Sequence record: PX880103.1
DNA length: 64,000 bases
Origin: a phage
Strand: one strand, 5' to 3'
Shown: positions 16,465 through 39,308 of the stretch, piece after piece
Layout: each line of letters starts with the position of its first letter
Numbering within the stretch: position 1 is the first letter of the stretch
The notes under the pieces: generated by a model
The model's input: the letters and a program-made list of their open reading frames with translations, nothing else
Database searches by the model: none
Told to the model about the DNA's origin: nothing
Translations under genes and position numbers: made by a program

Positions 16465-16812
16465 TCAATACGGTTTAGCATCAAATTTTCTCTCAATTTC
16501 AGGTGTGAAATATAATTCTTTACCACGTTTGGAAAAGCGACCAATAATATGATAATTATTCTCATCAAACGTGATATTACCAATATCCATAGCTTTCAAC
16601 CAAATATCGATATTTCTATCAAGCTTTATGTCAAAATTCCAATACAGAGAACTATTACCGAAAATACTACAAGCGGATTCAGTGAAACAACTGCTATAAA
16701 TCTTGTCTTTAGGAACTACTAATTGATAGACACCTTTAATAAACTGAGGACCCTGCCATTTTGGCTGTTTCACGTCTTTTTCTAATAGAATAGGGTAATA
16801 ATTAAAATTCAT
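16465..16812 (-). CDS. hypothetical protein inserted between frd and td
   Basis: 115-aa ORF with no recognisable motif; occupies an interval that I recall as a direct frd-td overlap in T4. Confidence 0.5.
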   Translation of the reverse strand: MNFNYYPILLEKDVKQPKWQGPQFIKGVYQLVVPKDKIYSSCFTESACSIFGNSSLYWNFDIKLDRNIDIWLKAMDIGNITFDENNYHIIGRFSKRGKELYFTPEIERKFDAKPY

Positions 16813-16831
16813 ATTTCCGCCACGCGTTATT

Positions 16832-17658
<827 letters not shown>

Positions 17659-17668
17659 ATTATTTTCC

Positions 17669-17911
17669 TTAAACAGACTTTTTCACAATTTTCCAATCAG
17701 CTTTAAACTGGTCGACGTCAGAATGGTAAATCCAGAATCCTGCGCTTTCTCCGTCTTCATAAAGAGGACATCCATCGCATTCATCTTCCCATCCCATATC
17801 ACGTAAAAGGTGTTCAGCTTTTTCAACAAGTTCAGAATCTTTACCGATGATATTAAAATACCATTTACCTCTAACTTCTGAATCTTTAATGCTCTGACGC
17901 TGTAATCTCAT
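17669..17911 (-). CDS. hypothetical protein (frd.2 position)
   Basis: 80-aa ORF. Confidence 0.55.
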   Translation of the reverse strand: MRLQRQSIKDSEVRGKWYFNIIGKDSELVEKAEHLLRDMGWEDECDGCPLYEDGESAGFWIYHSDVDQFKADWKIVKKSV

Positions 17912-17924
17912 TTTATTCTCCTCA

Positions 17925-17968
17925 AGTTGATAAGGCTATAGTATCATTACCATAGCCTGTTGTAAACA
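17925..17968 (-). promoter_or_regulatory. sigma70-type early promoter
   Basis: Minus-strand GTTTAC (plus 17962-17967) with TATAGT-like -10. Confidence 0.5.
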
Positions 17969-17969
17969 T

Positions 17970-18197
17970 TTATTTTTGGATTAATCCCATATAAAATTTA
18001 GCATCTTCAGGATACATGCCATCACAATACTCATTGGTCATAAAACTAATAAGGTCTTCAAGAGGACCTTGAACTTCAATTTGAATACTAAAGAATTGGG
18101 TATCTTTAATGTAAGCCATACTCAAAGAAGGATAACGATTGCGGATAACTTCGTAAGTGTATTCAAAATCAACAATATCAATATTAACCTTAGCCAT
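17970..18197 (-). CDS. small acidic protein, paralog A (starts [13 protein letters not shown])
   Basis: Internal ATG preferred over track start; clearly paralogous to 18663..18887. Confidence 0.55.
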
Positions 18198-18219
18198 TTT
18201 ATTTTCCTCATGTAGTTGA

Positions 18220-18258
18220 TAGGGCAATAGTATCACACTACTACCCTTCTGTAAACTA
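18220..18258 (-). promoter_or_regulatory. sigma70-type early promoter
   Basis: Minus-strand GTTTAC (plus 18251-18256) and TAnnnT -10 upstream of paralog A. Confidence 0.5.
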
Positions 18259-18615
18259 CTTTTTGAAAGTTTTTCGCAAAAGTTCAATGATTTCGTCTAC
18301 ATTGTTTTCATCTACAATGCAGTGAATTTTTGTTACGCCAGAAACTAGGTATTCGTCTTCTTCAGAAGTCGGTTCTTTATATTCACGAAAACAATGAAAT
18401 TCGTCTTCACAGACGTTAAAGTAAAAATGCTTTCCATTTGCGCATTCAATGTGTTTTATTACTCTAAATCCATCAACAAAGAAAGCTTCTTTAACTTCAA
18501 ACCATCCGCCATTTTCTTGAATAATTTTAACTATTGCTGAATTAGAACGTGGACGATAATTAATAAATGTATCAATAAGTCTTGGAACAAGTTCATACTT
18601 TTTACCGATATACAT
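18256..18615 (-). CDS. hypothetical protein
   Basis: 119-aa ORF. Confidence 0.5.
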
Positions 18616-18662
18616 TTTCTTTTCCTCATTTTAATAGGGGCTTGATAGCCCCTTGATAATTA

Positions 18663-18887
18663 CTATTCAATAAATCCTGTGTAAAATTCTACATCTTCAG
18701 CATCCATACCGTCGCAGTATTCATTAACCATAAACTGTTTAAGACGATTTAAAGGACCTTCAATAACAACTGAAACATTACAATTAGGATCATTTAGTGC
18801 GCTTATGATACTAAGTTCAGGATAACGATTACGAATAATTTCTTCAATATATTCAAAATCAACAACATCAATATCAATTTTAGCCAT
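18663..18887 (-). CDS. small acidic protein, paralog B (starts [13 protein letters not shown])
   Basis: Internal ATG preferred; shares RNRYP...EGPL...F..NEYCDGM with paralog A. Confidence 0.55.
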
Positions 18888-18917
18888 ATTATTTTCCTCT
18901 TTAATTATCAGCAGTAT

Positions 18918-18960
18918 TGCCGATAGTTGTATAGTACCATAAAGCTTTATGCTTGTAAAC
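18918..18960 (-). promoter_or_regulatory. sigma70-type early promoter
   Basis: Minus-strand GTTTAC (plus 18955-18960) plus -10. Confidence 0.5.
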
Positions 18961-18974
18961 AACTTTGTGAAAAA

Positions 18975-19008
18975 TTTTTAAAATAAAAAGGGGACCTCTA
19001 GGGTCCCC
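18975..19008 (-). terminator. rho-independent terminator downstream of gene 32
   Basis: Hairpin ggggaccctagaggtcccc followed by TTTTTATTTT on the minus strand. Confidence 0.55.
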
Positions 19009-19030
19009 AATTAATTAGTAATATAATCTG

Positions 19031-19939
19031 TTAAAGGTCATTCAAAAGGTCATCCAGGTCCGTGTCATCAGCACTAGATGAACTACCAGAGCTTGAGCTC
19101 ATAAAATCATCTTCAGTTTTTGTATTGAAGTCATCAACATTGAATGCATCCAAATCATCAGCAACTTTATCAGCTTTCTTAGCGGCAGTCGCTGCGGCAC
19201 CACCCATAGCAGCAGTTCCCATAACTTGACTGAACTTAGTGCTCAATTCTTCAAACGATTTGAATTTATCTTTAGAAGTCATTTCAGAAAGGTCAACCAT
19301 TTGTTCGAACAGTTCTTTCTGGAAAGATTCATCATCAATGTTTGGAATCGCAGATTGATTCAGGAATTTAGATTCGTCGTAGTTACTAAAACCAGAAACT
19401 TGTTTAACTTTCAGTACAAAGTTAGCACCTTCCCACGGACAAGTTACATCAACTGGAGTTTCACCCATTTCAACATCAACTGCAATCATTGCATTGATTT
19501 TATCCCAGATTTTCTTACCGAAACGGTATTTAAATACTTTACCTTCATTTTCTGGAGCAGCTGGGTCTTTTACTACAAGAATATTAGCCCAATAAGAAGT
19601 TTTACGTTTAACAAGGCTGTACTCTTTATTGTCAGTGTTGTACAGATCATTTTTACTGATGTATTGACATACTGGGCAAGAATCGTAATCACCGTGGGTA
19701 GATGAACAGTTTTCAATATACCATTTACCATTTTTCTTGAAACCGTGATTTACAAGAATTGCGAATGGTGCTTGTTCATCATTTTTAGACGGAAGAAAAC
19801 GAATTACTGCTTGACCATTACCCGCATTGTCGAGTTTCAGTTTCCACTCGCCTTTATCTTCAGAAGAAAAACCACCTTTGTTTCCAGCCAGTTTAGCCAT
19901 TTGTGCAGCGAGTTCAGCAGTAGATTTACGTTTAAACAT
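19031..19939 (-). CDS. 32: gp32 single-stranded DNA-binding protein
   Basis: 302 aa; [18 protein letters not shown]-terminus, zinc site, acidic Ser/Asp C-terminus as in T4 gp32. Confidence 0.95.
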
Positions 19940-20038
19940 TTTTATTTCCTTTTTAATTTAATTAACAGTTGGTGCTATGACGATGTATGACCTCATAGCT
20001 GGTCAGTGAGGTAATTATAATCTATTTATAATAAGCAA

Positions 20039-20692
20039 TTAATACTTACAAGATTTCACAGTTTCAATGAAAACATTTTTAGCTTTCTGTGAATCAATAT
20101 TTAAAATTTTTCTATAAGCCTTTAACTTTATAGAATAATTATTCCAGACTAAATTATCAGTCTGTTCATCATGTTTATCAATTATATTTAAAAATGAATC
20201 AAGCAAGATAAACGTCTCAAACGAAATTATGTTCGATTGCAGAAGTTTAAAAATATAACTTGACTGAACTTTTGGATTATACTCAAAGATTTCTTTAAAA
20301 GCAGAAACTTCAACTTTTTTACTAAAATAATAAATGTTGCGAATATCTTCTTCAAACTTAAACTTAATTTGCTTTAAGCGTCCGATATATTCACGATAAA
20401 ACACAAGTGCATCAGCGTCAGAGATGTCACCAATCCAAGCATCTTGGTTAGCAACCAAATTGCTTATAAAGATTAAAGCAAGTTCCTTTAATTTATATTT
20501 TTCTGATAACTTCTGGAAAAAATACTTATCCCTTCGCTTTTGATAAGCGGCATCAGACACCCGCATGCACCAATTATACTTAATTACATCATACTTTCCA
20601 TTCATATGTTGTTTTATCATTAAGTATAATTTATAAACTGATTTACCATCAATGTATCTTTCACCACCAGCAGGCATGCGGAGTTTAATCAT
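20039..20692 (-). CDS. 59: gp59 helicase loader
   Basis: 217 aa = T4 gp59 length; position downstream of gene 33. Confidence 0.9.
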   Translation of the reverse strand: MIKLRMPAGGERYIDGKSVYKLYLMIKQHMNGKYDVIKYNWCMRVSDAAYQKRRDKYFFQKLSEKYKLKELALIFISNLVANQDAWIGDISDADALVFYREYIGRLKQIKFKFEEDIRNIYYFSKKVEVSAFKEIFEYNPKVQSSYIFKLLQSNIISFETFILLDSFLNIIDKHDEQTDNLVWNNYSIKLKAYRKILNIDSQKAKNVFIETVKSCKY

Positions 20693-35837: not shown

Positions 35838-35876
35838 GATAGTTGTATAGTACCACAGTATGCTTTGGTTGTAAAC
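35838..35876 (-). promoter_or_regulatory. sigma70-type early promoter for motA
   Basis: Minus-strand GTTTAC (plus 35871-35876) and TAnnnT -10. Confidence 0.5.
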
Positions 35877-38964: not shown

Positions 38965-39010
38965 GTTCCTCCGTAGTTGATAGGGTAATAGTACCACGGA
39001 AGAACAGTCT
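38965..39010 (-). promoter_or_regulatory. sigma70-type early promoter
   Basis: Minus-strand GTTTAC and TAnnnT elements (plus: gtagttgatagggtaatagtaccac ... tgtaaacaac). Confidence 0.45.
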
Positions 39011-39308
39011 TGTAAACAACTTTTTTAAAAATATTCGTAATAAATGTGAATACCAACTACTACCGCTGAAACCTGTGCAACCCACCACGCACAAGCAATA
39101 AGTACAGAATTCATAATTTTCATAATAACCTCATTACAAAAGTAAATATTAAACAAATTACTGGAATACTAATTAACCAAACAAAACACCACCACAATGA
39201 ACTCATAGCTCAATCTCAGCGATTTTCATTTCATTCTCCAAATCCGTATCAGTTGATAGTTGTATAGTACCACGGTCCTTGTGGTATGTAAACTGTTTTG
39301 TGAATTTT

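Follow-up and report, generated by a model that had tools for sequence, protein, structure and literature searches.

The stretch analysed here, referred to below as the window, comprises 64,000 nucleotides of sequence record PX880103.1 and comes from a Tequatrovirus, a T4-like phage with a genome of roughly 168 kb in which accessory genes are plentiful; the label 'streamlined', applied to it in an earlier note, is a poor fit to such a phage. The subject is a pair of small open reading frames (ORFs), both homologs of T4 frd.3, which lie between gp32 and frd, the gene for dihydrofolate reductase. The coordinates of both, stop codons included, were confirmed. All genes of the region are on the − strand, and in the order gp59 to frd they are:

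20039..20692, − strand: gp59
19031..19939, − strand: gp32
18663..18887, − strand: slot-A frd.3, 74 amino acids (AA), 8.6 kDa, pI 4.05, the resident Tequatrovirus allele (PF05798, E-value 1e-31)
18256..18615, − strand: frd.2 homolog, 119 AA, situated between both frd.3 paralogs (PF03197, E-value 3e-32)
17970..18197, − strand: copy C, the putatively inserted frd.3, 75 AA, 8.9 kDa, pI 4.27, a Dhakavirus/Gaprivervirus-type allele (PF05798, E-value 5e-36)
17669..17911, − strand: frd.1 homolog, 80 AA, DUF5417 (PF17438, E-value 2.5e-33)
17413..17658, − strand: unnamed ORF, 81 AA, acidic, pI 4.05, PHROG 3183, no Pfam family
16832..17413, − strand: frd (dihydrofolate reductase)

With BLASTP the two Frd.3 proteins align over their full length without gaps, 38 of 74 residues being identical (51%, E = 1e-28). 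Each contains a PF05798 (Phage_FRD3) domain with a score far above the gathering cutoff of 28.1: 123.4 bits over model positions 1–75 of 75 in copy C, and 109.6 bits over positions 1–74 of 75 in slot A. Both also match PHROG 1764, a family of unknown function. The T4 homolog, labelled 'uncharacterized 8.8 kDa protein in frd-Gp32 intergenic region', shows 69% identity to slot A and 68% to copy C. It shares with the window ORFs its size, acidity, gene 32–frd location and early-promoter context, but T4 and nearly all of its relatives possess a single copy, whereas the window has two, of different allele classes. The description of the pair in the earlier note as small, acidic paralogs, each preceded by its own early promoter and ribosome-binding site (RBS), is borne out, and the similarity spans the proteins and is not confined to the promoter and RBS. 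The term 'tandem' applies in part: the copies have the same orientation and lie about 690 bp apart, but the 119-AA frd.2 homolog stands between them.

A consensus scan revealed three − strand early-type promoters at the locus, each with the −35 box TTTACA, a 17-nucleotide spacer and a TG-extended −10 box TACTAT. The window contains six exact instances of this pattern, three of them within this 1 kb, compared with 0 in 100 shuffles. A Shine-Dalgarno (SD) sequence and start codon of the form GAGGA(A/G)AATAA(A/T)ATG follow each of the three, and the SD GAGGAAAATAA precedes both frd.3 copies. The sites, the cassettes that contain them and the tract discussed below are:

18959..18931, 18255..18227 and 17966..17938, − strand: promoter sites from the consensus scan
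18888..18962, − strand: cassette P1, with an AT-rich upstream region, −35 TTTACA at 18959..18954 and TG-extended −10 TACTAT at 18936..18931
18198..18258, − strand: cassette P2 (hybrid), −35 TTTACA at 18255..18250 and −10 TACTAT at 18232..18227
17912..17969, − strand: cassette P3 (hybrid), −35 at 17966..17961 and −10 at 17943..17938
17925..18204, − strand: minimum putative donor-derived tract, 280 bp, containing an SD, copy C and the −35, stem and −10 of P3

P1 is almost identical to the region upstream of T4 frd.3. It contains the palindrome CATAAAGCTTTATG, a hairpin in the 5'-untranslated region (5'-UTR) and the SD GAGGAAAATAA (fold z −3.2), and would drive the gene-32-proximal, slot-A frd.3. 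P2 combines a resident (T4/JB75-type) −35 box and a stem, GGGTAGTAGT/ACTATTGCCC, overlapping the −10 box (fold z −4.9), with a donor-type SD, GAGGAAAATAAA, the donor-type SD sequence also being given as GAGGAAAAT. In P3 the arrangement is reversed: a donor-type −35 box and stem, AGGCTATGGTA/TACTATAGCCT, again overlapping the −10 box (fold z −3.5), are followed by the SD of frd.1, GAGGAGAATAAA. P3 lacks an 'AC' dinucleotide, as does JS98, and beyond it the frd.1 sequence is resident from the second codon on. The stem-loops of the cassettes have predicted energies of −14.7 to −20.5 kcal/mol (z −3.2 to −4.9 against shuffled controls), and the stem is kept from cassette to cassette by differing sequences. 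The upstream regions of the two frd.3 copies, which had been called near-identical, do have their consensus elements in common but are 61% identical overall and differ in spacers, stems and 5'-UTR lengths; the cassettes preceding copy C and frd.1 are more alike, at 77% identity.

Comparison with the one-copy Tequatrovirus JB75 located the boundaries of the additional DNA. The window matches JB75 at 96% on either side of the insert, and the JB75 frd.2–frd.1 intergenic promoter (~60 bp) matches the window twice, at 18255..18195 and at 17967..17909. One crossover, on the left, falls in P2 between 18212 and 18204, and the other, on the right, in P3 between 17924 and 17907. Both are at equivalent positions of the cassette, between ...CTATCAACT and the SD/ATG, within the conserved core. 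The alignment shows an apparently imported unit of roughly 280–300 bp, composed of one gene and one promoter cassette and inserted between frd.2 and frd.1. The latter gene is resident sequence from its start codon on (96% nucleotide identity to JB75), and would now be driven by the imported cassette P3.

The two copies have their closest relatives in different genera. Slot A is closest to the single frd.3 of JB75, with 73 of 74 AA identical (99%); it ends in ...GFIE-stop (GAA TAG TAA; 18663..18668), in comparison with ...GFIEQ-stop in JB75 and in two related loci (L007, L008), a one-base change from Q75 to stop having removed the last codon. The copy C protein is 100% identical to that of isolate VEc74 and 85–92% identical to the products of the single frd.3 genes of Gaprivervirus (VR7, VR25, VR26) and Dhakavirus (JS98, JS10, IME08). 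JS98 and VR7 share the arrangement 32, frd.2(a/b), ORF, frd.3, frd.1, so that frd.3 is directly upstream of frd.1, like copy C. JB75 and T4 have frd.2 and then frd.1 directly, and the donor tract is absent from both. Over its 280 bp this tract is 97.9–99.3% identical among two-copy Tequatroviruses, 91–92.5% identical to the Gapriverviruses along its full length, P3 included, 88–89% identical to Dhakavirus JS98, and 70–76% identical to any slot-A allele. The promoter accompanying copy C (P3) is of the Dhakavirus/Gaprivervirus type. These nearest relatives, together with the donor-type promoter, argue that copy C is an allele laterally acquired from a different T4-like group and not an in-situ duplicate.

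Our preferred explanation, to which we assign a probability of roughly 80%, is that the window carries two divergent frd.3 alleles, the second of which was imported by promoter-cassette recombination. The import would have taken place by homologous recombination during co-infection, either as a double crossover with the genome of a donor or through integration of a mini-circle of the PeSL (promoter-early stem-loop) type, after which the old frd.1 promoter would drive copy C and the imported promoter frd.1. Judging from the consensus and from T4 biology, each frd.3 copy would be transcribed independently by the host sigma-70 RNA polymerase right after infection; on the same grounds, the stem-loops would attenuate read-through. 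Once in place, the paralogs also serve as direct repeats, recombination between which gives a chimeric frd.3 with loss of frd.2, as in contig L027 (below).

PeSL cassettes and the modular shuffling associated with them have been described in T4-type phages (PMC2839356, Arbiol et al. 2010; PMC4122927, Comeau et al. 2014), the description covering RB49/phi1, T4/PST and KVP40/nt-1, with ORFans reported as the cargo (PMC2839356). The window cassettes show the same components, namely an AT-rich region upstream of sigma-70-like −35 and −10 boxes, a stem-loop that overlaps the boxes or lies between them, and an SD and start of a small ORF. The indel boundaries likewise fall within cassettes, and the insert, one ORF and one cassette, is of mini-circle size. 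They differ in that the cargo is a paralog of a resident gene and not an unrelated ORFan, and in that the stems are without the polyG/polyC tracts often mentioned for RB49.

The distribution of the two-copy arrangement was investigated among phage records and assembled contigs. When 50,697 phage records were searched with tblastn, Frd.3 was detected in 730 of them but at only 734 places, and two copies per genome are therefore rare. At most 4 of the 730 records have two Frd.3-like places, and JB75 and T4 are single-copy. At least 24 contigs (38 index blocks), drawn from metagenomes, assemblies of sequencing runs and NCBI assemblies and including isolate VEc74, carry the exact copy C protein, and the order gp32-FRD3-FRD2-FRD3-DUF5417 was present in 8 of the 8 places shown. 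These occurrences show a two-copy state stable enough to be present in many genomes. Alongside the invariant copy C, slot A is occupied by at least three allele types and a mosaic, and pairwise nucleotide identity averages 99.2% for copy C, compared with 97.2% for gp32 and 87.2% for slot A. The frd.2 gene of two-copy genomes encodes 119, 121 or 126 AA.

One contig appears to record a later step. In L027 (Logan SRR29999948, 3001–3249) a chimeric frd.3 lies directly between gp32 and frd.1, and frd.2 is missing, as it is from the distant phage Marfa. The N-terminus and hairpin of slot A are joined here to the C-terminus of copy C. The crossover, ...CGCTTTATG|ACCAATGAG, has a T4-type slot-A allele before it and after it zero mismatches to copy C, through P3 into frd.1. 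Such a structure is what one would expect if the paralogs of a two-copy genome had recombined with each other. The longest identical parental run near the junction is 19 nucleotides, and the Logan assembly presumably used k=31; a misjoin at L027 is therefore unlikely.

Of the alternatives, the one that survives best, though we consider it improbable, is an ancient duplication: a Tevenvirinae ancestor would have had two frd.3 genes, of which Tequatroviruses mostly lost the frd.1-proximal one and Dhakavirus and Gaprivervirus the gene-32-proximal one, while the window lineage kept both. The two slots do match the two frd.3 positions seen across genera, and the T4-type slot-A allele is nearly equidistant from slot A of the window (69%) and from JS98 (71%), so that position and sequence define no clean orthologous groups. 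Two Frd.3-like places in at most 4 of the 730 records are difficult to reconcile with this scheme, however, and many independent and precise losses would be required. The outgroup Marfa has a single copy, in the order 32, frd.3, frd.1, frd and without frd.2; one ancestral frd.3 therefore adjoined gene 32 as well as frd.1, and differing placements of frd.2 gave rise to the two slots. The flanks of the insert are, moreover, 96% identical to one-copy JB75, with the boundary in hybrid promoter cassettes, and the synonymous diversity of copy C is below that of its flanks.

A very improbable alternative is that the inserted ORF is a functionless, selfish passenger of mobile promoter cassettes. Its merit is that T4 frd.3 is dispensable in the laboratory: in CRISPRi-ART it was scored 'Not Fit', its knock-down being without fitness effect in laboratory E. 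coli, while T4 frd.2 was scored 'Fit' (0.83, p 0.027; PMC11879866 supplement). In addition, the family is of unknown function and confined to T4-like phages, and PeSL cassettes are reported with ORFans (PMC2839356). A passenger of this kind would not be expected to show the constraint observed in Frd.3. The ratio of non-synonymous to synonymous substitution (dN/dS) between copy C and JS98 is 0.125, and copy C differs from VEc74 by five synonymous and no non-synonymous changes, which indicates that purifying selection acts on Frd.3 overall. The fold is predicted with confidence, its models being conserved down to 16–26% identity in Serratia, Erwinia and Klebsiella phages, and synteny is conserved over the Straboviridae and further.

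The explanation given in the earlier note, according to which frd.3 was recently duplicated in place and the pair is kept for dosage or is diverging under diversifying selection, we regard as hardly tenable. It accounts for the full-length homology, the common orientation, the spacing of ~690 bp and the early promoter before each copy. The alignment and dN/dS analysis suggested as a check nevertheless gave a saturated synonymous distance (dS ~0.98) and 65% nucleotide identity between the copies, which are moreover separated by frd.2. Neither copy has the other as its closest relative: copy C is 85–92% identical to Dhakavirus/Gaprivervirus alleles against 51% to its neighbour, and slot A is 99% identical to the allele of one-copy phages. 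The promoter downstream of copy C is of the donor type, which a local duplication would not yield. Dosage is unlikely because of the 51% identity and the completely different hairpin of the two proteins.

Least credible is a chimera created by co-assembly of a Tequatrovirus with a Dhakavirus/Gaprivervirus-like phage, for although sewage often contains mixtures of T4-like phages and the promoter cassettes are short repeats, the same layout occurs in the complete isolate VEc74 and in contigs from differing projects and assemblers, the insert is 88–92.5% identical to sampled Dhakavirus/Gaprivervirus sequences in comparison with 98–99% among two-copy Tequatroviruses, and the same gene order at 8 of 8 places, together with the occurrence of the identical protein on 24 or more independent contigs, rules such an artefact out.

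Several points weigh against the import of copy C as we have described it. The actual donor is not among the sampled genomes, the best match being 92.5% at the nucleotide level, and the transfer is therefore old or from an unsampled lineage. The synonymous diversity of copy C (pS 0.045, against 0.105–0.136 for gp32, frd.1 and the 81-AA ORF) is compatible with a recent spread of the cassette, but the figure is biased, as the loci (L005–L012) were chosen by exact protein identity, and it derives from only ~41 synonymous sites. A double crossover and a mini-circle integration give the same product and are indistinguishable by sequence. Finally, we infer the promoter and terminator activity of the cassettes from consensus and folding.

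The structure of copy C was modelled with AlphaFold2 (pLDDT 93.8, pTM 0.81). The model has the topology β1-α1-β2-β3-α2-α3, a predicted small ferredoxin-like α+β domain. The invariant motifs DFEY, IRNRYP, GPL and EYCDGM..ED..FY are located in β1/α1 and α2/α3, and the variable residues 26–43 (18 residues) form the β2-β3 hairpin, which is of a different type in slot A and copy C. An A-type allele superposes on the copy C model with a TM-score of 0.94, and the BFVD models of Frd.3 proteins of phages of Shigella, Serratia, Erwinia and Klebsiella give scores of 0.78–0.94, all of these being predicted structures. Seventeen distinct Frd.3 proteins can be described as reassorting modules, with two N-terminal, four hairpin and three C-terminal types, and the mosaics have their breakpoints at the conserved IEGPL motif.

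The hairpin consistently has a higher dN/dS than its flanks, at 1.4–3.5 for some between-class pairs and 0.02–0.13 within a class, values that rest on ~10 synonymous sites and are not significant. The diversifying selection proposed earlier is suggested by the raised ratio; as proof of positive selection it was rejected, a ratio above 1 being limited to the hairpin and to some allele pairs, and is retained as a hint only.

Frd.3 may be pictured as an acidic protein of ~8.8 kDa in which the conserved helices would serve as a scaffold for a hypervariable β2-β3 hairpin occurring in discrete, reassorting types. Most likely, although our confidence is low, it binds a variable component of the host or of a host defence, the two alleles representing two specificities and not a double dose. 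That Frd.3 is an arms-race specificity module, its hairpin (at least four types) picking the host or defence variant that is bound or evaded while the conserved helices dock onto a conserved partner, is a tentative proposal and on balance an unlikely one. If it were true, two hairpin types, each with an early promoter, would enable the phage to cope with more hosts or defences, and recombination between the paralogs would be a built-in generator of new hairpin/C-terminus combinations. The internal-protein (ip) region of the T-even phages offers a likeness, as it too has discrete, divergent alleles at a conserved position which are swapped between co-infecting phages. Its proteins have neither sequence nor structural relationship to Frd.3 and are packaged in the virion; one of them, IPI*, has a known anti-restriction role.

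Weighing against a function of this type, the dN/dS pattern could equally result from relaxed constraint if the hairpin is exposed, and the comparisons of fold, families and literature were negative. The fold comparison gave no match informative as to function. A sequence search of the PDB found no match to Frd.3, a Pfam search up to E 10 no family besides PF05798, and NCBIfam no match; PADLOC yielded chance-level matches only (PD-T4-6, E 0.035; Cas8b, E 0.0055, on a neighbouring ORF). The literature on frd.3 provided no functional data, but of the NAD-capped phage RNAs the T4 frd.3 mRNA is reported to be one of the most abundant (bioRxiv 10.1101/2024.04.04.588121), and frd.3 has been counted as a 'cloud gene' at an identity threshold of 80%. 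The annotation 'putative peptidase inhibitor' carried by one homolog (GenBank OM386655) is unsupported, there being no similarity to a known inhibitor family.

The family is narrow, an exhaustive search of 1.84 billion representatives having returned only eight matches at E ≤ 0.001. The PHROG 1764 profile has 391 positions, only the last 75 of which are covered by Frd.3, and had suggested fused relatives; this was dropped, as the two long matches (P0018, P0023) are spurious, being repeat proteins with short matching segments.

The protein family, the shuffling process and the exact protein (in VEc74) were already known, and the locus is an unusually complete new example. It can be traced through three stages: import from another genus, persistence in many genomes, and paralog recombination with loss of frd.2. 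As such it illustrates how T4-like phages build and reshuffle their accessory gene content and is no new kind of system. It also draws attention to Frd.3, an early protein that is widely conserved and has discrete alleles of its hypervariable hairpin, as a candidate determinant of host interaction. A comparable stacking of small accessory-gene paralogs in the hyperplastic gene 32–frd interval is seen in Dhakavirus JS98, where frd.2a and frd.2b (L004:417–1175) differ from the pair described here in belonging to PF03197 and in being directly adjacent.

Two further elements flank the slot-A gene:

18990..19008, − strand: intrinsic terminator 3' of gene 32, GGGGACC-loop-GGTCCCC followed by a T-run; this element carries a terminator annotation in the JB75 record
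18636..18653, − strand: hairpin AGGGGCU-AUCA-AGCCCCU in the gap between slot-A frd.3 and frd.2 (−12.9 kcal/mol, z −2.2), without a T-run

The terminator would separate the frd.3 transcription unit from gene 32. The consensus scan found no TTTACA-17-TACTAT+TG promoter before frd.2; there was one weak 9/12 match (18685..18656, with an AATTAT −10 box and no TG) in a scan whose total was not clearly above that of shuffles. Since only the hairpin lies upstream and an early-type promoter is absent, frd.2 is probably co-transcribed with slot-A frd.3. The three remaining exact promoter matches in the window, TTTACA-N14-TGNTACTAT at 35847..35875, 38988..39016 and 39264..39292 on the − strand, may belong to other early accessory-gene cassettes. 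Rfam found no genuine RNA family over 16700..20100, the single match (Yar_1, E 0.089) being well under the gathering score.

The interval from gp59 to frd is a hotspot of insertion and deletion. In the window the gap between gp59 and gp32 is only 99 bp (19940..20038) and is without segG, the homing endonuclease gene of T4; three related loci (L007, L010, L011) have a 210-AA ORF in this gap. The td gene is split by I-TevI in four related loci (L005, L006, L009, L010), and a DUF7247 gene lies between frd.1 and the 81-AA ORF in L007 and L027. The stop codon of the 81-AA ORF (17413..17658) overlaps the start of frd; JB75 and VEc74 also possess such an ORF, and T4, with a distance of 71 bp from frd.1 to frd, does not. 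Between the frd.2–frd.1 promoter and frd.1, T4 has ~80 additional bases (L003:2220–2288) that are absent from the window. As read off the alignment, these contain an unannotated ORF of 22 codons which possesses a good SD and specifies a hydrophobic peptide, MFAPYIMAAVMLVCLYLLIKAC.

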